A DNA stretch of 64,000 bases from Thermoplasmata archaeon. GTDB lineage: Archaea > Thermoplasmatota > E2 > DHVEG-1. Position numbers and translations under genes: made by a program. Shown piece by piece: positions 28,322-51,090 of the stretch. Location of the stretch: positions 19,048-83,047 of the forward strand of contig JAHWGK010000001.1 of assembly GCA_020054495.1 (NCBI GenBank), read 5' to 3'. The notes below the pieces were generated by a model. That model had not been told where the DNA came from and searched no databases. It worked only from the letters and a program-made list of their open reading frames with translations. Positions within the stretch are counted from its first letter, which is position 1. The number at the start of each line of letters is the position of its first letter.

Positions 28322-28451
28322 TTGCCTCTTTCCGATTGTAAACATGAATTCTTATAATATTTTTTCCAAAATAGTTGCTTTAGACTTAAAATATCAAAAA
28401 ACATTGAATAAGAGTGCAGTAATTAGTATAAAAATGCAAAGTTCAAATTAG

Positions 28452-29916: not shown

Positions 29917-30963
29917 CTGCCAAAAAATGGTTATAATTCCGTAACACTACCAGATGCCTTAGTAAAAGATATAGACAATTTTGTAGATCAGAGTAATAAA
30001 TTGATTTCAAGCAGAAGTGAAGCGCTAAAATTAGCATGGATAGAGTATAAAGATAAACATATAGAAAATGTATTAGATAAATCTGTAAGAAAAGATACTT
30101 CCAAAGTGAAAATTGGCAATAAAGCTGTGGGGGATGGTGAACCTGTTTTTTTCATAGCAGAGATTGGCATTAATCATAATGGAGACATTGAAATAGCGAA
30201 AAAACTAATTGATATTGCAGTTGAAACGGGTTGTGATGCTGTTAAATTTCAAAAAAGAACAGTTGATATTGTTTATTCAAAAAAAGAGTTAGAAAGGCCA
30301 AGAGAAAACCCATTTGGTACGACTAACGGGGATCTTAAAAGAGGATTAGAATTCGGCGAGAAGGAATTTAGTGTAATTGATAAGTATTGTAAACAAAAAA
30401 ACATACTTTGGTTTGCATCCTGTTGGGACGAAAAAAGTGTAGATTTTATAGATCAGTTTAACCCACCATGCTATAAAATTGCATCTGCATGTTTGACAGA
30501 TGATAATTTATTAAAACATACAAAAGCCAAAGGTAAACCAATTATGTTATCAACTGGTCTTAGTACAATTGATGAAATCAAACATGCAGTCGATATTCTA
30601 GGAACAAAGGGTCTTATTATTTTACATTGCACATCAACATATCCTTCAGCACTAGATGAATTAAATTTAAAAGTAATACAGAATTTTAAAAAGAGGTTTA
30701 ATTGTCCAATTGGCTATAGTGGCCATGAAGTTGGTGTAACACCTAGTCTAATGGCGGCTGTAATGGGATCATGTGTAATTGAAAGACATATTACCCTAGA
30801 TAGGGCTATGTGGGGTAGTGATCAAGCTGCAAGTCTAGAACCTAATGGTATTAGAAGACTTGTAAGGGATATTGGACAAATATCTATTGTCAACAGTGAT
30901 GGAATAAAAAAAGTTTATGAGAGTGAATTACCGATTAAATCTAAGTTAAGGCGAGTTGGATGA
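29917..30963 (+). CDS. NeuB-family (sugar + PEP) synthase lacking the SAF domain, with an in-frame N-terminal ribbon-helix-helix-like segment
   Basis: NeuB core VFFIAEIGINHNGD, CDAVKFQKR, YKIASAC, GYSGHE, IERHITLDR. Upstream in the same frame: NSVTLPDALVKDIDNFVDQSNKLISSRSEALKLAWIEY. The 5' end is uncertain (CTG 29917, ATT 29914, TTG 30001 or GTG 30106). Confidence 0.75.
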   Translation: MPKNGYNSVTLPDALVKDIDNFVDQSNKLISSRSEALKLAWIEYKDKHIENVLDKSVRKDTSKVKIGNKAVGDGEPVFFIAEIGINHNGDIEIAKKLIDIAVETGCDAVKFQKRTVDIVYSKKELERPRENPFGTTNGDLKRGLEFGEKEFSVIDKYCKQKNILWFASCWDEKSVDFIDQFNPPCYKIASACLTDDNLLKHTKAKGKPIMLSTGLSTIDEIKHAVDILGTKGLIILHCTSTYPSALDELNLKVIQNFKKRFNCPIGYSGHEVGVTPSLMAAVMGSCVIERHITLDRAMWGSDQAASLEPNGIRRLVRDIGQISIVNSDGIKKVYESELPIKSKLRRVG

Positions 30964-36356: not shown

Positions 36357-38003
36357 TTACTTTTCTTCTTTGTTTTTTAACTCAGATTTTACATAGCCCA
36401 TCATTTTTTTAGGATGAAAAAGGTCTATGAAAAAATGAAAATCATCTTTTTTAAACTCCCTTAACGCAAATAATACTGCCATATAAATTGCCAGTCCAAC
36501 TAGTGAAAAACTGATTAAATGATACCAGCGGAATAATACAATAAATGACTTAAGATAATATAGAGTTCCTCCCATAACTATGCCCGCTATGATATGTCTT
36601 ATAGTATGGCTTTGTAGGATTTTGATTCCTGTAAATCTTTTTGCTGCAAGTCTTGTACCGAAGAAATATATCAAAGCTGAAATAGCTGTTGCGGTTGCAG
36701 CTCCTGTTGGTCCATTAATGGATATCACATATGAGCTGATTCTAATATTTGAAAGTAAACCATTTTCTGGAATAATCAAATAATTTAAAATTATGTTTGT
36801 ACCACATAACATTACTCCAATTAATGCTTGTATCTTTGGTTTGTTTATACCAAGAACAAGATTTGCATAAGGAAGAGATATTCCATAAATAAAAACCCAT
36901 ATTAACAAGGTCATCAAAACGGGTGCTGCTGGTAAAAAAGCAGTATCTAGAACTATTTCGATAATTCGCGAGGCAAATAAAAGGACTACAACTATCGGAG
37001 GAATCAAAACCATCGAAATGTATCTTTCTGCTAAACGAACCGCTTTTTTAATTTCCCCGAAATTATTAGAAGCATGATACTTTGAAATTGTTGGAAAGAG
37101 AACAGTGCCAACAGCCATCGCCAAAATTGTTATAAGACCGGTTATACGTTGAACTGTGAAATAATAACCAACCTCTACAGATGTCCAAAAAAATCCTATC
37201 ATAACTTTATCAATATTTGTAGAAATAATAGCAATAACTGATGAAAATGCGACAGGAACGGCAAAGGAAAAATAGCTCTTAAATAAAATCCAATTAGGTT
37301 TTTTCAAAGGGTACTTTCTAAAAAGCCAAAATCCTACAAAAAATGTTGCCATCATGCCAAAGACATAGGTCATTGCCAAAGAACCAACTGCATGATCTGC
37401 AATGAATTTTTGGAGCGGTTGAATAAATTCCGGCCAATCAAACGCAGGGGTAACACTATAAAATTTACCTGCGACAAAAAATCCAGTAACCCCTGCCAAG
37501 GCTACAATGATTAAAAGAGGGGTTTTAACGATGGTTTCTAACATTTCCGCGATTTGTTTCTTTGCAATTTCTCGCCTACCAACAAAAGTATTAATCGGTA
37601 TAGATTTTAATAACGAAAAAATGGTGTAAATAAGCATGATGAAGAAAACAGATTCTGTTGTTGCATCTGTAAAACCTTCGTTAAAGATATATTTCGAAAT
37701 AAAATAAGTACCAATAAGAAGTATTAACATCAAACTCGTAAGAAATATTTTAATTACTACAAATGTACCGATACAAGTACCTAAATCTTGTCCTTCTGAT
37801 ACCCTTTTGATATGTGCTTGAGAAAAACCTAGATCAGTTACAGCATTAAACAAAGCAATAAATGATAATGCAAATCCAATAATACCAAGAGCGGCTGGTG
37901 CAGCTTGTCCCCATAGCTTTGCCAGTACAAAAAATCCAATAATGGCTAGAGTTTTGATAATAAAATTTGTTGACACAATCAGAAAAGATTTCCTGGCAAT
38001 CAT
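36357..38003 (-). CDS. MOP-superfamily polysaccharide/oligosaccharide flippase (Wzx-like)
   Basis: 548 aa, about 14 predicted TM helices, typical polysaccharide-biosynthesis-protein layout. Confidence 0.8.
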   Translation of the reverse strand: MIARKSFLIVSTNFIIKTLAIIGFFVLAKLWGQAAPAALGIIGFALSFIALFNAVTDLGFSQAHIKRVSEGQDLGTCIGTFVVIKIFLTSLMLILLIGTYFISKYIFNEGFTDATTESVFFIMLIYTIFSLLKSIPINTFVGRREIAKKQIAEMLETIVKTPLLIIVALAGVTGFFVAGKFYSVTPAFDWPEFIQPLQKFIADHAVGSLAMTYVFGMMATFFVGFWLFRKYPLKKPNWILFKSYFSFAVPVAFSSVIAIISTNIDKVMIGFFWTSVEVGYYFTVQRITGLITILAMAVGTVLFPTISKYHASNNFGEIKKAVRLAERYISMVLIPPIVVVLLFASRIIEIVLDTAFLPAAPVLMTLLIWVFIYGISLPYANLVLGINKPKIQALIGVMLCGTNIILNYLIIPENGLLSNIRISSYVISINGPTGAATATAISALIYFFGTRLAAKRFTGIKILQSHTIRHIIAGIVMGGTLYYLKSFIVLFRWYHLISFSLVGLAIYMAVLFALREFKKDDFHFFIDLFHPKKMMGYVKSELKNKEEK

Positions 38004-38054
38004 GATAGGATGGTTAACAAAAAAGACGTATATAAATGATTAACAAATTAAAAA

Positions 38055-39260
38055 TTATAATATCTTACTTTTAGGCATTATTTCACCGTTGACGACTGCT
38101 CCTGGTCCAATAAAACAATTATCTCCAAGGATGGCTCCTACATTTATCATTGAATTTATGCCGGTTTGAACATTGTCTCCAGTAATAATGCCAAGTTTTC
38201 TTCTCCTTGTATTAATCTTATTTCCATTTTGAATAACCCAAATATTTTTCTTATCGAGACGTAAGTTTGCTACTTTTGAACCAGCTCCAAGGTTGCAATT
38301 TTGACCTATGATTGAATCTCCAACATAGTTCTGATGTGGAATATTACTGTTATCCAAAATAATTGAATTTTTCACTTCACAAGCATTTCCAATATGACAG
38401 TTGTTTCCAATTGATGTGTAAGGTCTTATGTAACAGTTTGGACCTATTTTGCAGTTATCTCCAATTACAACTGGTCCTTCTAAGTAACTCCCGCTCTTTA
38501 TTGTGGTATTTTTTCCAACAATAACTTTTCCTTTAATTGTAATATTTTTTTCAACAGTTTGTTCTGTCTTGTTGTCTATTTTCTTTAAAATTTCTTCATT
38601 TGCATCAAGTAAATGCCAGGGGTAAACAACGTCTCTCCATTCTTTGAGAAAAATTCCTTCAAACGCTCCATCTTCAGCCATCATATTTATTGAATCAGTT
38701 ATTTCATATTCCCCTCTAAGAGATTTTTTAGTTTTTTTGATATAATTAAAGATTTTTTTATTGAAATGATATATACCTGCATTAATATCATTTGAGAAAG
38801 GGTCTTGCATTTTTTCAAAGATTTTAACAATTTTGTTTCCTTTTATTTTAACGATTCCGTATTCTTCCGCATTTTGAATTTTATAGAGCCCCATGCTATT
38901 TTCTTTTTCTACAATTTTTTTTATATCTTGTTTACCAAAAATTGTATCTCCAGATAGCACTAGAAAATTATCAACAAATTTTTCAGCTGTCCCAATTGCA
39001 TGTGCAGTTCCTAAAGGTTCTCCTTGGCTAATATATTCGATTTTAACATTCCAATTTTTCCCATTTTTAAAATAATTTCTCACCATTTCGCTTTTGTAGC
39101 TAACAATAAAAATGAACTCTTTTATTCCCGCATCAATTGCATTTATTAAATTCCATTCTAAAATTGGCTTGTTTGCAATTGGAATCATAACTTTTGGGCG
39201 AGTGAAAGTTAGCGGATGCATCCGTTTTCCTTCACCAGCTGCAAGGATTACACATTTCAT
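38055..39260 (-). CDS. archaeal-type bifunctional sugar-1-phosphate nucleotidyltransferase / left-handed beta-helix acyltransferase (GlmU-like), copy 1
   Basis: VILAAGEGKRMHPLT..PKVM, GTAHAI, then hexapeptide repeats (IGDNCKIGPNCYI...). Confidence 0.8.
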   Translation of the reverse strand: MKCVILAAGEGKRMHPLTFTRPKVMIPIANKPILEWNLINAIDAGIKEFIFIVSYKSEMVRNYFKNGKNWNVKIEYISQGEPLGTAHAIGTAEKFVDNFLVLSGDTIFGKQDIKKIVEKENSMGLYKIQNAEEYGIVKIKGNKIVKIFEKMQDPFSNDINAGIYHFNKKIFNYIKKTKKSLRGEYEITDSINMMAEDGAFEGIFLKEWRDVVYPWHLLDANEEILKKIDNKTEQTVEKNITIKGKVIVGKNTTIKSGSYLEGPVVIGDNCKIGPNCYIRPYTSIGNNCHIGNACEVKNSIILDNSNIPHQNYVGDSIIGQNCNLGAGSKVANLRLDKKNIWVIQNGNKINTRRRKLGIITGDNVQTGINSMINVGAILGDNCFIGPGAVVNGEIMPKSKIL

Positions 39261-39274
39261 TTTTTCATTTTCTC

Positions 39275-41089
39275 CTATTCAACGGTGACTGATTTTGCAA
39301 GATTACGAGGTTTGTCAATTGAACATTCCCTTAAGTTTGCGACATGATAAGCAAGAAGTTGTAAAATAACAGTTATTGGAACACATGAAAGGAGACCTGA
39401 ATTTGATGGAAATGGTAAAACAAAATCAGCATGTTTATCTATTTCAGTATCACTATCCTCAGCAATAGCAATTACCTGAGGGCCTCTTGCTTTTACTTCG
39501 CCAATATTTGCTATCATTTTAGCATAAGTAGAATCTTTTGTAACTATCACTACAACAGGAGTAGTTTTTGTAAGTAAAGCAAAAGGACCATGTTTCAGTT
39601 CACCAGCCGCAAAACCTTCAGCATGAATATATGATATTTCCTTAAGTTTAAGAGCTCCTTCCAATGATAGAGGGTAGTTTAAACCTCGTCCAATGAAAAA
39701 AACTGAATTTGCATTCTTTAATTTGGATGCTATTCCAGATATTTTTTTACTTTGATTCAATATCTGTCTAACATTTCTTGGTAGCTCTTTAAGTTGGAGA
39801 ATATATTTGTACAATTCATCTGCTCCAATCTTGTTTTTTATTATTGAAATTTTTAATGCTAACAAGAAAAGAACGAGAATTTGAGATGTGAATGTTTTTG
39901 TTGCAGCAACACCAATTTCGGGACCAGATTGAGTTAGAATATATGCATCTGAAATCCTTGTTGCAGTGCTTCCAACAACATTTGTTACAACAAGAGTTTT
40001 ACATCCTGAGTTTTTAGCTTCTTTGAGTGCAGCAAGTGTGTCTAAAGTTTCACCTGATTGAGTAACAGCTATTACAAGGGAGGACTCATTTCTTGTACCA
40101 AAATAGCGATATTCAGAGGAAAGCTCAACGTTAACAGGGATTCCTGTTAATTTTTCTACTAAATATTTACCTATAAGACCAGCGTAGTAAGAAGTTCCAC
40201 ATGCAATAATATTAATTGAATTTATTCCATTTTTTAGAAGATTTTCGACTTTTTCGTTAAATTCTATTGTTCTATAGATTTCTGAAATTCGTCCTCTTAT
40301 TACATGATGAACTGTTTCAGGCTGATCATAAATCTCTTTAAGCATAAAATGTGGAAAACCAGATTTTTCTGCGTCTTTTAAATCCCATTTAATTAAATTT
40401 TCCTTTCTTTCAATTGGTATGTTTTTTTCATCAAATATTCTTATTTCTTTATTTGAAATAATACAAAGCTCTCCATCATTAAGGTAAACCACTCTATTTG
40501 TATATTTTAAAAAAGCAGTGACGTCAGACGCTAAATAGTTTTCATTATCTCCTACACCTATTACAAGTGGGCTATCTTTTCTTGCGCCAACAATTTTGTC
40601 AGGCTCATCAGTACAAGTTACAACAATTGCATAGTATCCTTCAACTTTTTTTAATGCAGAAAATACCGCTTTTTCTAAATTTCCCGTATAATTATCTTCT
40701 ATTAATTGAGCAATAACTTCTGTGTCGGTTTGTGATAAAAATTTATATCCCTTCTTTTTTAAATTGTCTCTTAATTTTGTGAAGTTTTCGATGATTCCGT
40801 TGTGGACAACTGCAATTTTTTTATTTGATGAAAGATGAGGATGAGCGTTTTCTTTTGTAACTCCTCCGTGAGTTGCCCAACGGGTATGTCCTATCCCAAT
40901 TGTTCCTTTAAAATCTGGGAGATTTTTTTTAATTTCATCTATTTCTCCAATATCTTTAAAGAGCTGTTGTTTTTTATCAATAATAGCAATTCCTGCCGAA
41001 TCATAACCTCTATATTCTAACCTTTTTAGACTATCGACTAAGATTTCTTTTGCATCTCTAAATCCTATGTATCCTATTATTCCGCACAA
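39275..41089 (-). CDS. glmS: glutamine--fructose-6-phosphate aminotransferase (isomerizing)
   Basis: MCGIIGY N-terminal nucleophile, HTRWATHG, two SIS domains, C-terminal PRNLAKSVTVE. Confidence 0.95.
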   Translation of the reverse strand: MCGIIGYIGFRDAKEILVDSLKRLEYRGYDSAGIAIIDKKQQLFKDIGEIDEIKKNLPDFKGTIGIGHTRWATHGGVTKENAHPHLSSNKKIAVVHNGIIENFTKLRDNLKKKGYKFLSQTDTEVIAQLIEDNYTGNLEKAVFSALKKVEGYYAIVVTCTDEPDKIVGARKDSPLVIGVGDNENYLASDVTAFLKYTNRVVYLNDGELCIISNKEIRIFDEKNIPIERKENLIKWDLKDAEKSGFPHFMLKEIYDQPETVHHVIRGRISEIYRTIEFNEKVENLLKNGINSINIIACGTSYYAGLIGKYLVEKLTGIPVNVELSSEYRYFGTRNESSLVIAVTQSGETLDTLAALKEAKNSGCKTLVVTNVVGSTATRISDAYILTQSGPEIGVAATKTFTSQILVLFLLALKISIIKNKIGADELYKYILQLKELPRNVRQILNQSKKISGIASKLKNANSVFFIGRGLNYPLSLEGALKLKEISYIHAEGFAAGELKHGPFALLTKTTPVVVIVTKDSTYAKMIANIGEVKARGPQVIAIAEDSDTEIDKHADFVLPFPSNSGLLSCVPITVILQLLAYHVANLRECSIDKPRNLAKSVTVE

Positions 41090-41090
41090 A

Positions 41091-42275
41091 TTACATCACT
41101 TTACTTGAACTTCCTACTTTTTTACTTAATCTATTCATAGGTTCTATTTTGCATTTTCTACCAATAATTACTCCAGGGTCAACAACAACGTTAGATCCAA
41201 TTGTGCAATCTTCGCCAATCATTGCACCAATATTTTTTAACTTCTTATACTCGCCTTCAATTTCAAGTGTGTTACTACCAGATATGCTTGAAAAATTGTT
41301 ATCAATAATAGTACCTTTTGCAATAATTGAATTTTTTATAGAAGAGTTTGAACCAATATGTGTATCATTCATGATCACACTATTCCTAATCTCAGAAAAA
41401 GGATTAATGACAGAATTATCCCCAATTGTTGTTGATGGAAAAATACAAGCATTTGGTCCAATTTCACAACCTTCCCCAATTACAACAGGCCCAACAATAT
41501 AACACCCAGAATAAATAGTTGTGTCTTTACCAATTGAAACGTCGCCTTTTATTGTAACGCCTTTTTCGATAACGCCTCCTTTTGAAGAAGGAGCACTATT
41601 AATTAACGACTCATTAACTTTAATTAAATCCCAAGGATATACAATATCCATCCATTCATTTGCAATAATTGTATCAATTATTTCTCCCTGATCTACGATT
41701 GATTGAATAACTGAAGAAAGATCATAAACACCATCAGAGGCTAATCCTTCAATTTGTTCAAAAATTGTTTTTGGAAGTTTATAGATCCCGGTTGATATAA
41801 ACTTACCAATTTCTTCTTTTGGTTTTTCAACTATTTCTTTAAGTTTATTTTTTTCAATAATAACAACACCATATTTAGATGGCTGAGGATTTTCTTTGAT
41901 TAATATTGAATATTTTGAGTTATCCTTAATTAAATTTGAAATACTTTTTTGATCAATTATATTGTCCCCTGATAAAACAATGAATGATTCTTTTATCTGT
42001 TTTTTAGATTGTAGTAAAGCATGAGCAGTGCCTAATTGTTTATCTTGTTCAACGTATGTTATTTTGACTCCTTTATAGTTTTTGAAGTATTCCATTATAA
42101 CTTCTTTTTTGTAACCAACAACAATTATAATTTCAGAAATCCCACTTTTTTTTACAGAATCAACTACATATTCAAGTATTGGCTTGTTTGCAACAAGTAA
42201 CATTACCTTTGGTAAAGTCTCTGTAAAAGGTCTTAATCTTTTTCCTTCGCCTGCGGCTAATATTACAGCTTTCAT
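41091..42275 (-). CDS. archaeal-type bifunctional GlmU-like enzyme, copy 2
   Basis: VILAAGEGKRLRPFT..PKVM, GTAHAL, C-terminal hexapeptide repeats. Confidence 0.8.
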   Translation of the reverse strand: MKAVILAAGEGKRLRPFTETLPKVMLLVANKPILEYVVDSVKKSGISEIIIVVGYKKEVIMEYFKNYKGVKITYVEQDKQLGTAHALLQSKKQIKESFIVLSGDNIIDQKSISNLIKDNSKYSILIKENPQPSKYGVVIIEKNKLKEIVEKPKEEIGKFISTGIYKLPKTIFEQIEGLASDGVYDLSSVIQSIVDQGEIIDTIIANEWMDIVYPWDLIKVNESLINSAPSSKGGVIEKGVTIKGDVSIGKDTTIYSGCYIVGPVVIGEGCEIGPNACIFPSTTIGDNSVINPFSEIRNSVIMNDTHIGSNSSIKNSIIAKGTIIDNNFSSISGSNTLEIEGEYKKLKNIGAMIGEDCTIGSNVVVDPGVIIGRKCKIEPMNRLSKKVGSSSKVM

Positions 42276-42357: not shown

Positions 42358-43122
42358 ATGATTCTTTTTCTTATACATAAAAATCTTGAGGTAATAATAT
42401 TGGCTAAGAAATACGTTATATTCAAAGATGATGACATAGGAAAAGATTTTGAAGGATTTAAAAAATGGATAGATGTTGTGTTGGAAAACAAAGCAAAAGC
42501 AGCCATTGGTGTCATTGGAAGGTATTTGAAAAATCAAGAATTAAGGAAATATCTAAATTCACTTGATGAAAAGCAAATAGAAATATTTTGCCATGGATAT
42601 TACCATAGTCATCTTCCATATATCTATAATAAACTTCTTAGAAGAAAGACTCTTTCAAAAACAGAATTTAATAAAGATTTTGGAAAACAAAACCTATCTC
42701 TTAAAAAATATAGACTTCTAGAAAGTAAATATTTGAAAATAAAATCAATTGCTTTAGGCCCACAAGGAAATATTTGGAATGAATTTATAATAGACGCAGC
42801 TTTAAAAAACGATTTTAAATTAATGTTTTCTTGGGATAAAGCAAAACATAAATTGTTGACCATTCCATTAACTGACAATTTTAAACAAAATTCATTAGAT
42901 GAATTTATCAGTGCCTATAAGAAAAACAAAGAAAATTCTATTTACACTTTGCAGTTTCATCATGCAAATCTATCTGAAACGCAATTCGATCTTATGGCAG
43001 AGGTTATTGATTTTTTAAAAAATGATGAAGATAGAGTTTTTGTAACACCATTTGAACTTTTGAAAATAAGTAAAAGTGATAAAACTATTTTTGATTTAAT
43101 GGCTCCTGAAAATGTGAGATAA
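42358..43122 (+). CDS. putative NodB/DUF2334-like polysaccharide deacetylase
   Basis: FKDDDIG (TFDDG-like) and CHGYYHSH (H..xH-like). Weak. Confidence 0.35.
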   Translation: MILFLIHKNLEVIILAKKYVIFKDDDIGKDFEGFKKWIDVVLENKAKAAIGVIGRYLKNQELRKYLNSLDEKQIEIFCHGYYHSHLPYIYNKLLRRKTLSKTEFNKDFGKQNLSLKKYRLLESKYLKIKSIALGPQGNIWNEFIIDAALKNDFKLMFSWDKAKHKLLTIPLTDNFKQNSLDEFISAYKKNKENSIYTLQFHHANLSETQFDLMAEVIDFLKNDEDRVFVTPFELLKISKSDKTIFDLMAPENVR

Positions 43123-43154: not shown

Positions 43155-44012
43155 TTAATTGATAAATAAAATTGAATACTTGCAGCTTTCCGCCATTTTT
43201 CTTTTAATGTTTTTTACAGGAAGACCCAATATACCTTTTTTCTTTTGTCCTCTGCCTACTATTACAAGATTTGGATTAATGCTTTCTGCAGCTTTAGTTG
43301 TTTCTTTTTGCAAGCTACCTTTTATTAATTTTATGTTTACTCCTTTGTTTTTCATTTCCTCAACAAAGTTTTGTCCTTTAAAAATCAAGTCTCTTTCTGA
43401 TTTTTTATCAGATCTTATACAATTTTCATCTACTTGCACGCAATCTTCAACATCTACAACATATAGCATGTGCAAATCCCAGCCGAGAGTTTCTGAAAGT
43501 TTTAAACTTATTTCTGGAACTTTTTTGTTGGGAGCCAGATTAGAACAAACTGCAAGAATTGATTTACCTTTGCTTTCAGCTTCTACCCAAACAGGTATAT
43601 TTATATCATCTAAAAGACGATAATTAAGGATACATCCTTTTTCAAAACCCATCAATATTAAATCGTAATTGTATTTATCGATTTCACTTTTTACAATGAT
43701 ACTAAATTCCCCTTCAACTATTTTTTCTTCAAAAGAAATATTTTTGTTTTTAAAGAAGTACTTTGCATCATCAAAAATAATGTTGTATGCTGCAAGTTTT
43801 TGTTTTCTAACTATCTCATTTTTTGTTTCTGCTATTTCATAAAGAGTTCGGTAGGAATTAGAACGTCTGTCTGTTTGATTTAATGTTTTTTCTTCTATTA
43901 TGTAAATGAGGTTTATGGTACTTTTATATTTTTCAGCAAGGAAAACTCCTCTTTGCAGAACTTGCTTGTTGTAAAACTCTGAAGAAATTGGTATTATTAC
44001 ATTTTTAAACAT
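43155..44012 (-). CDS. tandem universal stress protein (UspA) domains
   Basis: Two Usp-like halves; the second ends LVIVGRGQKKKGILG...ESCKYSILFI. Confidence 0.7.
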   Translation of the reverse strand: MFKNVIIPISSEFYNKQVLQRGVFLAEKYKSTINLIYIIEEKTLNQTDRRSNSYRTLYEIAETKNEIVRKQKLAAYNIIFDDAKYFFKNKNISFEEKIVEGEFSIIVKSEIDKYNYDLILMGFEKGCILNYRLLDDINIPVWVEAESKGKSILAVCSNLAPNKKVPEISLKLSETLGWDLHMLYVVDVEDCVQVDENCIRSDKKSERDLIFKGQNFVEEMKNKGVNIKLIKGSLQKETTKAAESINPNLVIVGRGQKKKGILGLPVKNIKRKMAESCKYSILFIN

Positions 44013-44029
44013 ATTCCCCGCCTTATTCC

Positions 44030-45463
44030 TTAGATATTATGTAATCCCAATACTCCAATCCAATATCCTACTGCAACCAGAAATACAATTACTATACAAA
44101 TAATATTTGCTAAAACACCAGCCTTAAATAAATCCTTTGTTGAAAAATAACCTGATGAATACGTTATTGCATTACCTGGAGTTGCTATAACAAGCATAAA
44201 CGCAAGTCCACCGCTTAAAGCGATAATCATTGATGAAAGTAAAGGACTTATTCCTATTGCTGGTGCCAATGCTATACCAATTGGCAATAAAATTGCAACA
44301 GCTCCAATATTTGACATAACCTCTGTCAGCAATATAGTTATAATTATCATTACAAGAATCACTAAATAAAGATTAGAGCCTGCTAAACTGAATATTTGAT
44401 CAGCTATCCATTGTCCAGCTCCGGTTTTTTGAATGCCAATTCCTAAAGTAATTGCTCCTCCATAAAGTAAAATAATACCCCAAGGGACTCGCTTTTCTAC
44501 ATCTTTCCAAGTAATAACGCCTGTTAAAAACAATAGGATACTTCCAAGTATTGAAATGACTGCAAGTCCAAAATATTGATATGATGAGAAGAAAATCCAA
44601 AGTAAGATTGTTATTATCAGTATAATTAAAACTAGGAATTCGTTTTTCTTCATTTTTCCTGTGATACTGACTTGATTTTTAATTTCTTTTCTTGCTGCAG
44701 AAATGTCCTTTATTTCAATTGGAAAAGAAAACTGTAGGACAAGCCAGACTAAAGGTAATGCAATGATTACAACAGGCATAGAATACTTCATCCAATCAAA
44801 AAAAGTTACATCTATTCCAATATCTGAGAGAATGCCAATGGTTAGAGGATTACGAGCCCCACCTATTAGAGTTCCTAAACTACCAATTGAACACCCAAAT
44901 GCAACGCTTAACATACTAATCTTTCCAAAATTACTCTGTTTTGGGACTATTTTCATGGCAATTAGAATTGATACGACAATTGGTAAAAAAAGTGCAGCGA
45001 CACCGTGCTCGGGCATAACAAATGATAAAAATGCACAAGATGTCATGATTCCAAATGTAAAGAAACGTGGGCTTTTCTCGAATTTGCTTAAAAACTTTAA
45101 AGCAATACGTCGGTGGAGGCCATGTTTTTCGATTGCACCAGCAAGAATAAATGCACCTATTAAGAAAAATACTGCCTGATTTCCAAATGAAGAAAAGACA
45201 TCATTTGGAGGTATAACATGTAACAAGGGCTGAATTATCATTATTAAAAGACCAGTTACAGCTAGTGGTATTGCTTCAGTTATCCACAAAATTGCAGCCA
45301 TAATTAAAATTCCTATCATAACTTGGCCATCATGAGTTAAACCGCTTGGATTTGGGGAAAAATAAAATATTGCTACAATTAAAAAGGCTAGTAAAATAAA
45401 AAAAATGTCTTTATGACTCTGGATTTTAAGTTTACTTTTAAAATAATTATTATCGTCTTTCAT
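44030..45463 (-). CDS. DASS/SLC13-family Na+-coupled anion symporter (candidate sulfate importer)
   Basis: 477 aa polytopic protein. Repeated hairpin-type motifs (SFVMPEHG.., VMSNIGAVA) typical of DASS. Sits in the sat/cysC operon. Confidence 0.75.
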   Translation of the reverse strand: MKDDNNYFKSKLKIQSHKDIFFILLAFLIVAIFYFSPNPSGLTHDGQVMIGILIMAAILWITEAIPLAVTGLLIMIIQPLLHVIPPNDVFSSFGNQAVFFLIGAFILAGAIEKHGLHRRIALKFLSKFEKSPRFFTFGIMTSCAFLSFVMPEHGVAALFLPIVVSILIAMKIVPKQSNFGKISMLSVAFGCSIGSLGTLIGGARNPLTIGILSDIGIDVTFFDWMKYSMPVVIIALPLVWLVLQFSFPIEIKDISAARKEIKNQVSITGKMKKNEFLVLIILIITILLWIFFSSYQYFGLAVISILGSILLFLTGVITWKDVEKRVPWGIILLYGGAITLGIGIQKTGAGQWIADQIFSLAGSNLYLVILVMIIITILLTEVMSNIGAVAILLPIGIALAPAIGISPLLSSMIIALSGGLAFMLVIATPGNAITYSSGYFSTKDLFKAGVLANIICIVIVFLVAVGYWIGVLGLHNI

Positions 45464-46044
45464 GTTCTTCTATTTCGGTATAATCGATTATCTATTGCTT
45501 CCATCATTTTATCAAAGATTTCCCTAGATATACCCAAGAAATCCACTATTTTACTAATATTTCCCTTTGGATTTAATAGTATATCATTATAGCTGACCAA
45601 TAAAACATCAATATCTTCTCTTTCAATGATGTGGTTTTTTACCAGTTCATTTAATTTAACAAAGGTTTCACGGGTTTCTTCGCGATTATCGTCTTTTTTC
45701 CCAATCATTTTTTCCATTGAATCAAGTATTTCTTCAATGTTTCTCTCGGAGTAAATGATTTTATATTTCCCAGGAGGAAGATATCGAAGACCATAAGCTG
45801 TAATCTTAATGAATTTTCCTTTGTATTTCTCCATTGGAAAGGATCCATCAATGAGTTTATTTATTATCTTCCCACCTTCAAGCTCATAATAACCTTTCGG
45901 GTTGTTTTGGTCAGGCAGCCGTGAACCATTAAAAGAAGTTGGGATATCACCAGCACTTAAAATTTGCATCATCATGGATGTTCCAGAACGCTCTAAACCT
46001 GATATAATGTAGTTTATATCTTCATCTAATTTCATCTCACTCAC
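45460..46044 (-). CDS. small sulfotransferase-family protein
   Basis: IISGLERSGTSMMMQIL (5'-PSB P-loop-like), IIYSERNIEEILDS (3'-PB-like). 4-nt overlap with the transporter start. Confidence 0.6.
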   Translation of the reverse strand: MSEMKLDEDINYIISGLERSGTSMMMQILSAGDIPTSFNGSRLPDQNNPKGYYELEGGKIINKLIDGSFPMEKYKGKFIKITAYGLRYLPPGKYKIIYSERNIEEILDSMEKMIGKKDDNREETRETFVKLNELVKNHIIEREDIDVLLVSYNDILLNPKGNISKIVDFLGISREIFDKMMEAIDNRLYRNRRT

Positions 46045-46045
46045 T

Positions 46046-46657
46046 CTACCCTTTTATGAGACCTAGTTCTTTTAATTTTTTCATAACTTTTTCTGCACTT
46101 TCTTCTACAGTTTCTTTATCAGTGTCAACTATTAGTTCTGGATTTTCTGGTTCTTCATAAGGAGCATTAATTCCTGTGAAATCTTTTATTATTCCTTCCC
46201 TTGCTTTTTTATATAAACCTTTAGGATCTCGCTTTTCACATGTTTCAAGAGAGGCTCTACAAAATATTTCGACAAATCTTCCATCTCCAACCAGTTCTCT
46301 GCAGAAATTTCTATATTTTCTGTACGGAGAAATAAAAGCAGTTATAGCAATCACGCCAGCATCTGCAAAAAGATTGGCAACTTCAGATATTCTTCTAATA
46401 TTTTCGTTCCTATCCTCAGGCGAAAAACCAAGATTTTTATTAAGTCCCTGGCGAATATTATCTCCATCGAGCACATACGTAAGTTTTCCTATAGAATGTA
46501 AGTTGTATGCAACTTCATTTGCAACTGTTGATTTTCCGCTACCAGATAGCCCTGTAAACCATAGGACTGCTCCCTTCTGTTTTAAAAGCACTTCTCTTTC
46601 TTCTTTTGTTACTTTATGTTCATGCCATGTTACATTTGTTGCTTTTTTTTCTACCAT
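46046..46657 (-). CDS. cysC: adenylyl-sulfate (APS) kinase
   Basis: VLWFTGLSGSGKSTVA, LDGDNIR, ITAFISPYR, KGLYKKAR. Confidence 0.95.
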   Translation of the reverse strand: MVEKKATNVTWHEHKVTKEEREVLLKQKGAVLWFTGLSGSGKSTVANEVAYNLHSIGKLTYVLDGDNIRQGLNKNLGFSPEDRNENIRRISEVANLFADAGVIAITAFISPYRKYRNFCRELVGDGRFVEIFCRASLETCEKRDPKGLYKKAREGIIKDFTGINAPYEEPENPELIVDTDKETVEESAEKVMKKLKELGLIKG

Positions 46658-46676
46658 TTTTTATCACCTTCTAATT

Positions 46677-47651
46677 TCACATTTTTAAAAATTCTAAAAT
46701 TTCTTGGACAAAAGAATCAGTTTGTCCTTTTGGTACAATTGCTCCAAAAACTTCTTTTTTTCCTCCACATTTAAAACCAAGAGATTTTCCCTTCACTATC
46801 AAAGGTTCTGCATTTTTCTTACTTCTCACATAAATTTGATCTCTATCACCAAAAAAACCTGTATTGATAACAACAGTATTTTTCTCAGAAGTCCATGCAA
46901 CTTTTCTTGTTAATGTAGAGATTATATTGTATGATGTGTTAATTTTTTTAAGAATTATCCCATCTATTTCGTTATCGGGCATATTTAGTTGTTTTTCAAG
47001 CTCTTGATTTAATTTATTGAAGTTATCATTCCATTTCTGATTATTCAATATATAATCAGCTGTTCCATTTTCAATTAAAAGACGTGGAGCTTCCTCAACC
47101 GCTTCCTTATCTCCTAATTTATAGTTTGAATCCAAAAGATAAGCCATTTTTAACAAATCATCAAAATTTAGACCGTTTTCATTGCAAAAATCTGTGATAA
47201 TTCTGTAAAATTCCTGATTGTTTTTTATTTTCTGTTCATGATCTCCGATGATTCCAAGCAATCCATATAAATTTATTTTGTTACCTAGAAAATCATTTAC
47301 TATCCAACTTGCAGAAGGATATTTGTCAGGGTTCCCGCCCTTTATTACAGGGTTATTATGAAATACTTGTTCCACAACTTTACCCAAATGATGGTCAAAA
47401 ATCATTACTTGTGCATTTTTTGCAAGTCTTAAGATGTTGTCTTCAGGAAGAGACATGTCTGCAACTATTACAAAATCATATTTTGAATAATTTTCAAGTT
47501 CTTCTTCGGTGAGATAGTAGTTGCCAAGCTGGGGTGTTTTGTTAGTGATGTCTTTATCTGAAAGTTGTTCCAGTAAAAGGCGAGCGGAACATATGCCATC
47601 AGTATCCCAATGATGAATCAATAGGCCTTTCCCTTTTAATTTTTCAAACAT
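46677..47651 (-). CDS. DHH/DHHA1 phosphoesterase (candidate 3'-phosphoadenosine-5'-phosphate phosphatase)
   Basis: IHHWDTDGICSA (DxD), IFDHHLG (DHH), C-terminal GGKKEVFGA (DHHA1-like). The function is contextual. Confidence 0.7.
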   Translation of the reverse strand: MFEKLKGKGLLIHHWDTDGICSARLLLEQLSDKDITNKTPQLGNYYLTEEELENYSKYDFVIVADMSLPEDNILRLAKNAQVMIFDHHLGKVVEQVFHNNPVIKGGNPDKYPSASWIVNDFLGNKINLYGLLGIIGDHEQKIKNNQEFYRIITDFCNENGLNFDDLLKMAYLLDSNYKLGDKEAVEEAPRLLIENGTADYILNNQKWNDNFNKLNQELEKQLNMPDNEIDGIILKKINTSYNIISTLTRKVAWTSEKNTVVINTGFFGDRDQIYVRSKKNAEPLIVKGKSLGFKCGGKKEVFGAIVPKGQTDSFVQEILEFLKM

Positions 47652-47666
47652 GTTAATCTTTCCTTT

Positions 47667-48818
47667 TTATTCAACAAATGGATTTTTAAATTTAAGAATC
47701 ATTTCTGCTACTTCTTTTCTCATCATGTCTTCAGGGGGAATTTCTCCGTTTCTTAGCAATTCTCTTATTTTTTTACCACTGAAATTGATATGATCTTTTG
47801 GGTCATGAGGACAAATCTTATCATTTACAACACTACCGCATTTTGTACATCTTGAAAAAGATCTGAAGAAAACTGGAATAATATGTAAATCTGGAAATTC
47901 TGAGAAAATATCATGTGCATCATAAGGGCCATAATAATTTCCAACTCCTGCATGATCTCTACCTACAATGAAGTGGGTGCAGCCGAAATTTTTCCGCATT
48001 ATAGCATGATGTATTGCCTCTCTTGGTCCAGCATATTTCATAGAAGTTCTTAAAATGGACATTACTGCACGATCTTTGAGATAATAGTGTTTCATCAGTG
48101 CTTCATATGACGATAGTATCACATCATCTCTGAAATCTCCACTTTTTTTCTTTCCAATGATTGGATTAATAAATAGACCATCGACAAAAGTTAGAGCTGT
48201 TTTTTGAACATATTCATGGCCTATATGGGGTGGATTACGCGTTTGAAAAGCAACAATTTCTCTCCATCCTTTTTCTTTGAATAAAATACGTGTTTCTTTT
48301 GGTGTAAGATTATATTGATCATATTCCCTTGTTTTACTTGCAATAAGTGAAATTTTTCCACCAATTAGATTTTGTTTCATATTGTATACATTAGCAACCC
48401 CCGGGTGATTTGTATCTTGTGTTCGATAGATTGCTTGTGCTAATGTTTTTTTATCATATGTATAAATTTCATCAACATTTAATAATGCACGTACACCATT
48501 TTCTTTATTTGTAAGAATAACAGAATCTCCTGCTTTTATTCCATTTAAGTCGTTTTTATCAAAATCCAACAGTATGGGAATTGCCCATGGTGTATCATCA
48601 GCTAATCTTTTTTCTGCAACTACATTTTCAAGATCGTTGTTACATAAAAATCCTTCTAATGGTGAAAATACTCCGTGGGCAATGTTTAGAATATCTTCTG
48701 AAAGGTTTGTATTTATTTCAAGTTTTGAAAGACCGTTAGTGCCTAATGACTCTTTTTTAACACGCCTATTTATTAATTTTCCACCGTGTGGTTTTGGCAT
48801 TATTTTCACCTCAGTCAA
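47667..48818 (-). CDS. sat: sulfate adenylyltransferase (ATP sulfurylase)
   Basis: FQTRNPPHIGHEY, GRDHAGVGNYYGPYDAH, and a C-terminal Cys cluster. Confidence 0.95.
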   Translation of the reverse strand: MTEVKIMPKPHGGKLINRRVKKESLGTNGLSKLEINTNLSEDILNIAHGVFSPLEGFLCNNDLENVVAEKRLADDTPWAIPILLDFDKNDLNGIKAGDSVILTNKENGVRALLNVDEIYTYDKKTLAQAIYRTQDTNHPGVANVYNMKQNLIGGKISLIASKTREYDQYNLTPKETRILFKEKGWREIVAFQTRNPPHIGHEYVQKTALTFVDGLFINPIIGKKKSGDFRDDVILSSYEALMKHYYLKDRAVMSILRTSMKYAGPREAIHHAIMRKNFGCTHFIVGRDHAGVGNYYGPYDAHDIFSEFPDLHIIPVFFRSFSRCTKCGSVVNDKICPHDPKDHINFSGKKIRELLRNGEIPPEDMMRKEVAEMILKFKNPFVE

Positions 48819-49044
48819 TATAGCCTAGTGCTCGAAGTCTATCTTTAACTCTTTTTTCGTCTTCTTTTGTAAAAACCTCGTCCTCTTCTTCGTCCATACC
48901 TGATATAACCTCTCTAAGCACATAGGTTACATATGAAGAGAGAGATGTGAATCCTGTTCCTTTTATTCTTTTTTTAATTTTTTCTGCTAGAGGGGTTGGT
49001 ATTGATACTGTTGTAAATTTTTTATCTTCTTTATCTTCTTTCAT
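48811..49044 (-). CDS. CopG/ribbon-helix-helix family transcriptional regulator
   Basis: KFTTVSIPTPLAEKIKKRIKGTGFTSLSSYVTYVLREVI (strand-helix-helix). 8-nt overlap with the sat start. Confidence 0.75.
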   Translation of the reverse strand: MKEDKEDKKFTTVSIPTPLAEKIKKRIKGTGFTSLSSYVTYVLREVISGMDEEEDEVFTKEDEKRVKDRLRALGYID

Positions 49045-49077
49045 AGTTTATACCTCATCATATATAATTATATTTCA

Positions 49078-49117
49078 TTATATATCACTATATTTAGTTA
49101 TATATCATTGTGATATA
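49078..49117. promoter_or_regulatory. repeat/palindrome cluster upstream of the RHH-sat operon (candidate operator and/or TATA region)
   Basis: TTATATATCA at 49078-49087 and 49098-49107 (20-nt phasing). Perfect palindrome TATATCA-ttg-TGATATA at 49101-49117, 34-73 nt upstream of the RHH start codon. Confidence 0.3.
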
Positions 49118-49212
49118 AATACTTTACGAATTTTGAGGCTTTGCACATAAGATTTAGATACTGTTATGTTTTAAACCTATACAAGCAAATAAAAAAAAGA
49201 GAATGAATTTGG

Positions 49213-49674
49213 CTACTGTAAACCTAGAATGTATCTAAACACTGGAAAGGCATTGGGGAATTTTTCTAATATTATTTGTACAAAGTTGAATTGTGGAGCA
49301 TTAATTTGACGAGGGGAGCCATAGCTTACAGTAAAAGACCATTCATCATTCATTTGGTCTTCTCCATTAGTATCTATTGCCCTAATCCTCAAAAAATACT
49401 TATTTCCCTTTTTCAAATCTCCATAATCTTGAGGAAGATTTTCATATGCTATTTGTGTTTGACTTCCATGATAGAGGGCAATTGTTACAATAAGCTCACC
49501 ATTTACGTACAGATCCCTTATATCATATAATATATGCTCTAAAGTTTGTTCCATGAACCAGATCTCGTACATTACACGGTCACCGCTGTTTGTATCTCTC
49601 TCCCCCCCTGCCCATGTTAGATCAATAGCTTCTGGGCTGGAGTCTACTTTATTAGATAAGAAAGTTTTATAAAC
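49213..49674 (-). pseudogene. 5'-truncated FN3/Ig-like-domain surface protein remnant (tracked ORF 49213..49572)
   Basis: The domain sequence continues in frame upstream of the tracked ATG (KVDSSPEAIDLTWAGGERDTNSGDRV-MYEIWF...) up to a stop at 49675-49677. There is no start codon or signal peptide. Confidence 0.4.
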
Positions 49675-49713
49675 TTATATTCTAACTATTATTAAATAGA
49701 AGGATTAAAAAAT

Positions 49714-51090
49714 ATGAAAAAAACCATTATTAAGAAAAAAGGATTGATTTTGATAATTGGAGTGATTTTCGTTTTGGTATCTATTCAACAGATGGGTATA
49801 TTCTATACGGAGTCAGTATCTTCTATATCTACAATTGCAACAATTAATGATACCTCATCTCCAATTGTTGGTAGTTTTTCCGATTCTCACTTTTCATCAG
49901 TTAATCCTATCTATGGTGAACGTCCTTTATTATTAATTCTAATTGAATTTAGAGATCAACCTCATTCCCCTGATCATGACATCGAGCATTATAATGAATT
50001 GTTATGGGGTGAAGAAAATAATTTACAGGATTACTTTAATGAAGTTTCATATGGAAAATTTACATATGTAAAAGCAGGAATTTTAGGATGGTATAAGTCA
50101 ACTTGTAGTATTAACTTATATAGACTCAATTTTCATTATTATACAAATATTATAGCAAGACAAGGTTTTAAAAAAGCTGCTCAGGATCAGAGTTTTAATT
50201 TTGTTCAATATGATAAAAATGGTGATCAAATAATAACACCTGATGAGCTTTCTATTTTTGTAGTTGTCACTAATTCAAATAAAAAATTAACTTATGCGTA
50301 TACCAAAAGGATTGACAATAAATTAAAGATGTTTGATCAAGTAAAAACATGGGATGGTGTTTTTTTAAAATTAAGATATTGTGGAGTTCCAGAAGATTGG
50401 CATATGCGTATTTATGCTCATGAACTTGGACATACACTTGATCTTCCAGATCTTTACGATCTGCATTTTATCCCCACTGGAAATTCAAATGGAATTGGTA
50501 ACTACTGTGTAATGAATCCACATCCTGAGCCAAATGATCCTGTACATTTTTGTGCTTGGTCAAAAATAAAACTAGGGTGGATAGACCCTGTTGTTATCTC
50601 CGAGGACGGATATTATGAAATCCACGACATAGAAAGACACCCAGAGGCATATATAATTCGAAATCCAACACATTCAACCTCTGAATATTTTTTAGTTGAA
50701 AATCGTCAAAGAATAGGATTTGATGAACAAATACCTGATACAGGAATTGTAATATATCACATAGATGAATCCAGGCTAAGTAGGTATTATGGGGGGAAAA
50801 AAATCGTCTTGTTAGGTGACAACAAGGATGAAACACATAAATTAGTAGATCTTGAGTGTGCTGATAGTCCCTCATCACATTTTATCAATGCTGATGATTT
50901 AGATACAGGAAAAAATTTTGGAGATGGCTATGATCTATGGGATAAAAATGAATATGTTTTTCATGATGATTCTATTCCTTGTAATTCCCGTTGGTATGAT
51001 GGTATTAAGAGTGGAATATCTATAGAAGTTTTATCAGAGTCAAATAATACTATGGGAGTTTATTTTTCAATAAATGGGTATAGTCCATAA
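49714..51090 (+). CDS. secreted M6-like (immune inhibitor A-type) zinc metalloprotease
   Basis: N-terminal signal/TM MKKTIIKKKGLILIIGVIFVLVSI. HELGHTLDLPDLYD (HExxH..DLY). Confidence 0.75.
   Translation: MKKTIIKKKGLILIIGVIFVLVSIQQMGIFYTESVSSISTIATINDTSSPIVGSFSDSHFSSVNPIYGERPLLLILIEFRDQPHSPDHDIEHYNELLWGEENNLQDYFNEVSYGKFTYVKAGILGWYKSTCSINLYRLNFHYYTNIIARQGFKKAAQDQSFNFVQYDKNGDQIITPDELSIFVVVTNSNKKLTYAYTKRIDNKLKMFDQVKTWDGVFLKLRYCGVPEDWHMRIYAHELGHTLDLPDLYDLHFIPTGNSNGIGNYCVMNPHPEPNDPVHFCAWSKIKLGWIDPVVISEDGYYEIHDIERHPEAYIIRNPTHSTSEYFLVENRQRIGFDEQIPDTGIVIYHIDESRLSRYYGGKKIVLLGDNKDETHKLVDLECADSPSSHFINADDLDTGKNFGDGYDLWDKNEYVFHDDSIPCNSRWYDGIKSGISIEVLSESNNTMGVYFSINGYSP

Follow-up and report, generated by a model that had tools for sequence, protein, structure and literature searches.

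Sulfate-activating gene clusters in archaea

Jin et al. (2021; PMC8268124) characterised the DHH-type 3'-phosphoadenosine 5'-phosphate (PAP) phosphatase (pApase) of Pyrococcus yayanosii and drew, in their Fig. 1B, a conserved copG-ATPS-pApase-(phosphodiesterase)-APSK cluster (ATPS, ATP sulfurylase; APSK, adenosine 5'-phosphosulfate (APS) kinase) that is found in several archaea, including Aciduliprofundum boonei (aboo_0230-0235) and P. yayanosii (pych_17520-17560). They suggested copG as the regulator of the cluster, and noted that a sulfotransferase gene is adjacent in some archaea (PMC8268124). Jespersen and Wagner (2023; PMC10322725) solved the structures of ATPS, APSK and PAP phosphatase (PAPP) and characterised the enzymes; they also recorded that Methanocaldococcus infernus has ATPS, APSK and PAPP plus putative reductases, yet does not grow on sulfate, and proposed that such archaea use 3'-phosphoadenosine 5'-phosphosulfate (PAPS) through an unidentified sulfotransferase. 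Here we analyse a seven-gene operon on the minus strand of a 64,000-nucleotide stretch of DNA from a Thermoplasmata archaeon (contig JAHWGK010000001.1, positions 19,048 to 83,047; hereafter, the window). The operon encodes a ribbon-helix-helix (RHH)-like protein, an ATPS, a DHH-type phosphoesterase, an APSK, a sulfotransferase (ST), a DASS-family anion symporter and a tandem universal stress protein (Usp). We consider it probable that this cassette is a dedicated sulfation unit, which combines sulfate uptake, PAPS synthesis, sulfotransfer and PAP hydrolysis.

The window operon shares with the cluster of Jin et al. its leading CopG/RHH gene, Sat-type ATPS, DHH-type pApase and APS kinase, and the A. 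boonei version has all seven window genes. There are differences from A. boonei: APSK precedes ST in the window whereas ST precedes APSK in A. boonei, the window cassette has no type I phosphodiesterase, and its Usp is a clear tandem. As far as sequence comparison goes, the window cassette is the orthologue of the A. boonei cluster that had already been drawn. Jin et al. frame that cluster as assimilation; the ST, the transporter, the operator and the bacterial counterparts lie outside the analysis in their paper (PMC8268124). The comparison with the locus of Methanothermococcus thermolithotrophicus, which comprises ATPS, APSK, DHH-type PAPP and an AprAB-like PAPS reductase (PMC10322725), is also instructive: ATPS and PAPP are homologous and the logic of PAP removal is the same, but the consumer of PAPS is a reductase there and an ST in the window (the hypothetical 'route 1c' of those authors), where AprAB-like genes are missing. 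A sequence-only reading of this DNA, which preceded our analysis, had proposed that no such cassette had been described in archaea. That proposal has to be withdrawn, since the core was drawn by Jin et al. (PMC8268124) and the ST route was put forward by Jespersen and Wagner (PMC10322725).

Literature searches for a described sulfation operon in Thermoplasmatota gave only those two papers and that of Zhou et al. (PMC6461988). Judged against the searchable literature, the new elements are how widely and stably Thermoprofundales-like archaea keep the seven-gene block, the counterparts of the cassette in bacteria, the displacement of Sat by CysDN, the ST family as defined here, the operator array, the general association of the RHH family with sulfate adenylyltransferase genes, and the unusual DASS motif. 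The gene set itself will not surprise a specialist. Private ATP sulfurylase and APS kinase genes that are co-encoded with an ST, as in the window, are familiar from rhizobial nodPQ-nodH (6-O-sulfation of the N-acetylglucosamine of Nod factor) and from Xanthomonas raxPQ-raxST (tyrosine sulfation of RaxX). Unlike the window, those sets have CysDN-CysC fusions and STs of other families, and they are not known to include a PAP phosphatase, a transporter or an RHH regulator.

Many anaerobic archaea have sulfate-activation genes without a capacity to reduce sulfate, and the fate of their PAPS was raised explicitly as a question in 2023. The cassette offers candidates for the PAPS consumer (a compact, highly conserved ST), for the sulfate importer (a member of an unusual DASS clade) and for a regulator that has a defined operator; cultured A. 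boonei has this set as well, so direct testing is feasible. If the product were a sulfated envelope glycan or metabolite, abundant sediment archaea (Thermoprofundales) and Aminicenantes would share a widespread trait, which would also be a small, unrecognised sink in the sedimentary sulfur cycle.

Organization of the operon

The seven minus-strand open reading frames (ORFs) are tightly packed between 43155 and 49044, and all were found where the sequence-only reading had placed them. In order of transcription they encode the RHH-like (CopG/Arc-MetJ type) protein of 77 aa (48811-49044), assigned by profile alignment and gene linkage; the Sat-type ATPS with its PUA_2 and ATP-sulfurylase domains (47667-48800); the DHH/DHHA1 phosphoesterase, a PAP phosphatase homologue (46677-47651); the APS kinase CysC (46046-46657); the PAPS-type ST of 191 aa (45460-46035); the DASS symporter (44030-45463); and the tandem Usp (43155-44012), the last gene of the unit, which converges on a plus-strand gene at 42358-43122. 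Comparisons with Pfam, NCBIfam and PDB bear out this gene set and its family assignments, weakly by sequence for the RHH protein. The arrangement is far from chance: dozens of independent genomes show this order again. The idea of one functional cassette for uptake, PAPS synthesis, sulfotransfer and PAP recycling is supported by the enzyme identities and by this recurrent order, with sulfate uptake as a predicted component.

Two start codons needed to be revised. The longest ATPS ORF begins with a TTG at 48818 (47667-48818), and a Shine-Dalgarno sequence, GAGGTG (48812-48807), precedes an ATG at 48800. The latter is most likely the start; it yields a protein of 377 aa, the same length as the homologue called in a related locus (L003). 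With the start moved to this ATG, the RHH and ATPS genes no longer overlap by 8 nt, as previously claimed, and are instead separated by 10 nt. Similarly, the ST starts at the ATG at 46035 (MKLDE..., as in all homologues) and not at 46044, where its listed ORF (45460-46044) begins, which places the start 10 nt past the APSK stop and replaces an earlier 1-nt gap. The ATGA overlap of the ST stop with the DASS start is confirmed.

Enzymes of PAPS synthesis and PAP hydrolysis

Both domains of the ATPS score above the curated Pfam thresholds (PF14306, PUA_2, 148 bits; PF01747, ATP-sulfurylase, 301 bits). The protein also matches the NCBIfam model for sulfate adenylyltransferase (NF003166) with 511 bits against a cut-off of 387, and its alignment with the M. 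thermolithotrophicus ATPS (PDB: 8a8d) has an E value of 2e-142. The APS kinase scores 275 bits against TIGR00455 (cut-off 138.7) and has the P-loop GLSGSGKST. Given this strong homology to characterised enzymes, Sat would make APS and CysC would convert it to PAPS.

The DHH protein, which carries the Pfam DHH domain, has a sole PDB match, to the characterised PAP phosphatase of M. thermolithotrophicus (MtPAPP, PDB: 8a8k; E 1.7e-34, residues 10-315 of 324). The metal ligands of MtPAPP are His6, Asp8 and Asp10, Asp57, the DHH residues (His76/His77) and Asp127, and the GG[KG] of its DHHA1 domain is a substrate motif (PMC10322725). In the alignment, the metal-ligand positions H-x-D-x-D, D, DHH and GD are identical (HHWDTDG, ADM/LDL, DHH and GD), and the DHHA1 substrate motif is aligned as GGK. 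Homology to two characterised archaeal enzymes (MtPAPP and PyapApase) therefore identifies the protein as a putative archaeal DHH-type PAP phosphatase; it would hydrolyse PAP, the inhibitory product, to AMP and phosphate.

Conservation of the cassette

Gene order was analysed in 80 fetched genome loci and in a further set of metagenome contigs that were selected through the RHH protein. Some 30 species-level genomes of Thermoplasmatota have the order RHH-ATPS-PAPP-APSK-ST-DASS-USP, as do numerous metagenome contigs; among the 80 genome loci, PAPP is present in 31, DASS in 23 and USP in 21, and the loci with the block include the complete chromosomes CP070724.1 and CP070836.1. The best database relative of the RHH protein is that of the cultured A. 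boonei T469, in which the order is RHH-ATPS-DHH-ST-APSK-DASS-(weak Usp)-phosphodiesterase. Identity to the window proteins ranges from 74% (RHH) through 60% (ATPS), 53% (ST), 47% (APSK) and 45% (DASS) to 35% (PAPP).

In several genomes and metagenome contigs, Sat is replaced by CysD and CysN in the same slot between RHH and PAPP, with no change in the remaining genes of the cassette, the ST among them. We interpret this swap as non-orthologous displacement, which argues for selection on the product of the pathway. The CysD plus CysN loci are L014, L026, L029, L030, L053 and L077 (genomes) and L115, L122, L125, L142, L146 and L164 (metagenomes); several of them have an APS kinase that shares only about 50% identity with the one in the window.

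Bacterial counterparts were found in Aminicenantes and allied bacteria, where ST-RHH-(ATPS-APSK)-(epimerase)-UDP-glucose dehydrogenase lie on one strand. Thermoprofundales-like Thermoplasmatota have kept the cassette by vertical descent, and some of its parts have been exchanged with sediment bacteria.

A type I phosphodiesterase/nucleotide pyrophosphatase (PF01663), of which the window has no copy, recurs in or beside the cassette (A. boonei, L085:15398-16930; L007, L035 and L082) and is also encoded at L171, L175, L177, L179, L182 and L183, including in clusters that have no ST. Jin et al. guessed that this phosphodiesterase serves in the removal of pyrophosphate (PMC8268124).

Sulfation versus reduction of the activated sulfate

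The ST is the only PAPS consumer that the operon encodes. The sequence-only reading had stated that the window contains neither a PAPS/APS reductase nor a sulfite reductase, and this was borne out when Pfam was run on about 60 large, non-nested ORFs of at least 100 aa, nine of them with no Pfam match: no such reductase was found among these ORFs, a result that applies to the 64-kb window. Nor was a reductase family found among the recurrent neighbours of the cassette in more than 150 related loci. The CysH signature ECG[LIVM]H, a pattern that misses AprAB-like, Fsr and Sir proteins, occurs once in the window plus 86 loci (1.2 Mb): the occurrence, ECGIH, is in a 421-aa ORF of an uncultured archaeon (L079; ends near 10000), a PAPS/APS-reductase-like gene directly upstream of its ST. 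Zhou et al. reported that Thermoprofundales metagenome-assembled genomes (MAGs) encode the steps to PAPS without CysH and CysJI (PMC6461988).

These observations bear on a first alternative, in which the operon is the front end of assimilatory sulfate reduction: PAPS reductase and sulfite reductase would come from genes elsewhere, following the example of M. thermolithotrophicus or the proposal for M. jannaschii-type enzymes, and the ST would be a side branch. The ATPS and PAPP of the window are indeed homologous to enzymes of a proven assimilatory pathway, both Jin et al. (PMC8268124) and Zhou et al. (PMC6461988) label the cluster as sulfate assimilation, and the ORF with the CysH motif in L079 also speaks for this explanation. 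We nevertheless regard it as unlikely: it is opposed by the lack of a reductase in the window and beside the cassette in related loci, by the absence of CysH and CysJI from the Thermoprofundales MAGs, by the failure of M. infernus to grow on sulfate with a comparable enzyme set and putative reductases (PMC10322725), and by the position of the ST as sole PAPS consumer in the operon.

A second alternative would cast PAPS and PAP mainly as signal or stress metabolites, as Jin et al. suggested for Thermococcales (PMC8268124), with the operon as a regulatory nucleotide circuit. The Usp gene inside the operon is compatible with such a circuit, as are RHH-headed clusters without an ST that exist in relatives (RHH-ATPS-(PAPP)-phosphodiesterase-APSK, the P. 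yayanosii arrangement). A dedicated transporter and a sulfotransferase would make for an expensive route to a signal, however, and both ST and DASS are conserved in this lineage; we judge this proposal to be highly improbable.

Sulfation is the best reading because several strands converge on it: about 30 species have the ST inside the operon, Sat is displaced by CysDN with the ST retained, bacteria have ST-ATPS-APSK sets, an HD phosphohydrolase domain is fused to one ST relative (see below), there is no reductase in the window, and part of the literature (the Thermoprofundales MAGs and the proposed ST route) points the same way. The earlier proposal that the sulfate is activated for sulfation and not for assimilation thus stands as the preferred interpretation, on the strength of the embedded ST, the swap and a window without reductases, and with the scope of the window and the compared loci.

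Several points weigh against this conclusion. A PAPS reductase (CysH-like, or AprAB-like as in M. thermolithotrophicus) and Fsr or Sir might be encoded in this genome outside the window. On alignment, the window ATPS closely resembles the M. thermolithotrophicus enzyme, whose role is assimilatory. The clusters without an ST mean that PAPS synthesis has at least one other use in relatives. The structures nearest to the ST, as judged from its predicted model, belong to enzymes that act on small molecules or peptides, not glycans. Sulfate cannot be deduced as the DASS substrate from a sequence with an altered first motif, and it is genomic linkage that suggests sulfate. Finally, the RHH assignment of the 77-aa protein is weak: it is sub-threshold in Pfam, and the monomer model has no significant match to an RHH structure.

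The sulfotransferase and its acceptor

The ST matches Pfam Sulfotransfer_1 (PF00685) with 38.3 bits (cut-off 22) and also matches Sulfotransfer_3; a sequence search of the PDB gave marginal matches only. Its AlphaFold (AF2) model has a pLDDT of 84, and Foldseek relates this model with probability 1.0 to StaL, Teg12/14, cytosolic SULTs and TPST at TM-scores of about 0.5-0.6. Across 22 sequences of the family, the loop SGLERSGTS (residues 15-23) and R101...S109 are invariant; we take the former to be the 5'-phosphosulfate-binding (5'-PSB) loop and the latter the 3'-PB motif. The conserved catalytic His of the cytosolic SULT type is not found among the 63 invariant columns of these 22 sequences. 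Carbohydrate and tyrosine sulfotransferases use Glu, and it is typical of them that there is no invariant His. By analogy with carbohydrate sulfotransferases and TPST, the catalytic base is likely to be E18, E54 or E100. Residues 35-59, which form a loop (NPKGYxELxGGK), combine low model confidence with a wealth of invariant residues.

The family is widespread yet compact. Database searches returned 1676 relatives, the best 120 of which are 65-88% identical to the window ST. They occur in more than 542 species-representative genomes from Thermoplasmatota, Aminicenantes/Acidobacteriota, Cloacimonadota, Desulfaltia and others, and a library of 1.8 billion representatives contains only 35 clusters (50% identity) at E<=1e-30. 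Across two domains of life, identity to the operon ST is 54-88%, and this conservation points to one common acceptor rather than a strain-specific glycan.

We propose that the operon ST would pass the sulfuryl group to a conserved acceptor, most likely one that is carbohydrate-related. This acceptor class is favoured because nucleotide-sugar genes flank the ST in three independent settings: GlmU/GlmS/flippase genes in Thermoplasmatota, PIG-L/WbqC/UDP-sugar dehydrogenase/GT4 genes in A. boonei, and the same-strand run of UDP-glucose dehydrogenase and epimerase genes in Aminicenantes. GlmU-like, GlmS, GlmU-like and flippase genes usually come after the block in relatives, exactly the order that the window shows. 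These conserved syntenic neighbours form a separate minus-strand transcription unit in the window (36357-42275), which comprises a GlmU-like sugar-1-phosphate nucleotidyl/acetyltransferase (41091-42275), GlmS (39275-41089), a second GlmU-like gene (38055-39260) and a Wzx/MurJ-type flippase (36357-38003). We consider a sugar nucleotide or a conserved envelope precursor to be a somewhat more likely acceptor than a free metabolite or a protein. A sulfated surface glycan may be the target: the neighbouring genes recur, but the ST resembles StaL/Teg12, SULTs and TPST rather than carbohydrate sulfotransferases.

That resemblance belongs to the evidence for another view, namely that the cassette does serve sulfation but its ST acts on a small soluble metabolite, a cofactor or a lipid (e.g., a sulfated-sugar osmolyte) or on protein tyrosine, the adjacency of glycan genes being inherited synteny. 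The extreme cross-domain conservation of the ST and its invariant-rich flexible loop are consistent with an acceptor of this kind, TPR repeats, which are usually protein-binding, are fused to more distant ST relatives, and the presumed PSB loop has an Arg, as it does in TPST. We hold this view to be possible but doubtful, bearing in mind that nucleotide-sugar genes adjoin the ST in three independent contexts and that the family has no invariant His, a feature typical of carbohydrate as well as tyrosine sulfotransferases.

Some relatives of the ST deserve mention in their own right. One protein of 375 aa (P0272), 52% identical to the ST, is fused to an HD phosphohydrolase domain that, from its sequence, may be an alternative PAP-removing partner; the fusion echoes the pairing of the ST with a PAP phosphatase. 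The distant relatives P0315, P0321 and P0337 are Phosphodiest-TPR-sulfotransferase fusions. IMG/VR contigs of 45-155 kb that are classified as viral (L087-L092) carry relatives with 43-50% identity and neither ATPS nor APSK; one of them (L091) also carries a relative of the RHH protein, and another (L087) a sugar nucleotidyltransferase. These could be auxiliary genes or misclassified cellular DNA.

The transporter and the universal stress protein

The DASS protein scores 320 bits against TIGR00785 (cut-off 199) and is closest to VcINDY (E 1e-55) and to SLC13 proteins (SLC13A1, E 6e-48). The DASS/SLC13 family has two Ser-Asn-Thr motifs at hairpin tips that serve in the binding of Na+ and substrate. 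The first of these was not found in any cassette-linked member: where VcINDY has SNT, these proteins have P-E-H, or S-E-H in the case of A. boonei. At the second site they carry S-N-[TI], and the corresponding window residues are FVMPEHGVAA and TEVMSNIGAV. This pattern marks a distinct cassette-linked clade and hints at altered coupling-ion or substrate chemistry. In the proposed pathway, the DASS permease would import sulfate.

The Usp matches PF00582 over residues 1-124 (42.9 bits, cut-off 24), and its C-terminal half aligns with its N-terminal half (E 4e-4), which together confirm its description as a tandem. It is kept after DASS in the 21 genome loci that have it. We speculate that the tandem Usp might tune the transporter or respond to adenine nucleotides.

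The putative RHH-like regulator and its predicted operator

The 77-aa protein scores 14 bits against Pfam RHH_1, below the cut-off of 20.5 (best family member, E 0.0015), and its comparison with Arc repressor gives E 0.23. An hhalign comparison with Arc/CopG/NikR/Mnt placed it in the correct beta-alpha-alpha register (E 2.9e-4, probability 40%), and its relatives are annotated as CopG or Arc/MetJ regulators by JGI and NCBI. In the AF2 monomer, an extended segment (residues 9-16) is followed by helices at 17-26 and 35-50 and by an extra helix at 60-73. Foldseek found no significant RHH structure with this monomer; one RHH domain (7ycv) was returned at E 9.7. The C-terminal helix, ...SKEDEEKVKERL[KR]ALGY[ILM]D, is near-invariant in archaea and bacteria and is conserved more than the DNA-binding core. 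Its probable contact is a ligand or a component of the pathway.

Upstream of the RHH gene, the promoter/operator region (49051-49120, minus strand) consists of a TATA-like box, atttatat (about 49120-49113), and then five to six head-to-tail decamers, TARYKAWATA, at 49110-49051, the last of which overlaps the Shine-Dalgarno sequence GAGGT just before the RHH ATG at 49044. Four exact copies lie in phase at 49061-49100, where 8.5 scattered matches would be expected in the whole window; Tandem Repeats Finder reports 5.5 copies with period 10 and 2.4 copies with period 20. No such array occurs in the rest of the window or in 50 shuffles. The same array is found upstream of RHH in related genome loci, with a two-copy version in A. 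boonei. Among the metagenome loci selected through RHH, 41 of 76 show three or more in-phase units in the 120 nt before RHH, and none of 1339 control windows reaches even two.

The metagenome loci were chosen through the RHH protein alone, and 58 of them had enough sequence for the next gene to be read: the gene directly downstream of RHH encodes a Sat-type ATPS in 47 and CysD in nine (56/58). In general, then, this RHH family is a marker for operons of sulfate activation. Arrays of short tandem repeats are bound by RHH repressors such as omega of pSM19035, ParG and CopG. Like them, the window protein, a small protein of putative beta-alpha-alpha topology, is encoded first in its operon, behind promoter repeats spaced at about one helical turn; in contrast to them, it has the near-invariant C-terminal helix, its promoter is archaeal (TATA box) and its binding is a prediction. 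From this anatomy and its conservation, we infer that the RHH-like protein, as multiple dimers, would bind the tandem 10-bp repeats between the TATA box and its own start, and would so autoregulate the operon; the position of the repeats suggests repression by occlusion of the start site. The sequence-only reading had placed the operon under an RHH regulator: a conserved operator-like array speaks for this, while the RHH identity is weak by sequence and binding is predicted.

A two-gene RHH-ST module and the invariant tail had suggested that the RHH protein might be a specific partner or substrate of the ST, either as an antitoxin-like tail or through a tyrosine acceptor in LGY[ILM]D. We rejected this as the principal interpretation, bearing in mind that 56 of 58 next genes encode sulfate adenylyltransferase and that clusters without an ST exist. 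The tail was also considered as a proteasome HbYX motif and was rejected, since its Tyr is third from the end, not penultimate. The extra RHH-ST modules, which lie away from the full cassette, occur at L028 and L054 (the same MAG, CAYFVP01), L007, L035, L044, L082, L144 and L153; that of L007 is followed by a second Sulfotransfer_3 gene.

We also put forward, as a tentative idea with rather long odds, a combined model in which the RHH protein is a dedicated regulator of sulfate-activation operons whose C-terminal helix senses the state of the pathway (APS/PAPS/PAP or an enzyme), and the 191-aa ST is the 'missing' sulfotransferase of non-assimilating archaea, which would account for the retention of ATPS, APSK and PAP phosphatase in many of them, sulfating one acceptor that is common to archaea and bacteria (e.g., a nucleotide sugar or an envelope precursor).

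The glycan island and other features of the window

A second sulfotransferase (20185-20979, plus strand; Sulfotransfer_3, E 4.5e-30), which the sequence-only reading had located in a glycan island, is confirmed there; the island is variable and of nonulosonic-acid/amino-sugar type. It is unrelated to the operon ST, the common feature being the PAPS loop only, and is the more typical glycan-decorating ST of the two. This enzyme would draw on the same PAPS pool. By Pfam, the island encodes two NeuB-type synthases, DegT aminotransferases, UDP-sugar dehydrogenases, cytidylyltransferases, GNATs, methyltransferases and a flippase. The two NeuB-type nonulosonic-acid synthases belong to separate sets (15506-16543 and 30001-30963), each with a GNAT and a cytidylyltransferase, and two large minus-strand ORFs of the island (27104-28345 and 28452-29750) have no Pfam match.

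No tRNA, rRNA, riboswitch or small RNA family of Rfam reaches its gathering threshold in the 64-kb window, and scans for sigma-70 promoters and intrinsic terminators, models that are not applicable to archaea, stayed at chance level. Upstream of the operon, the window has about 2 kb (49213-51090) that are extra relative to relatives such as L008, in which the RHH promoter has GATase_5 and Nudix genes as its immediate upstream neighbours. This insert contains a 119-aa minus-strand ORF with no family match (49213-49572) and a plus-strand gene for an M6-family metalloprotease (49714-51090).

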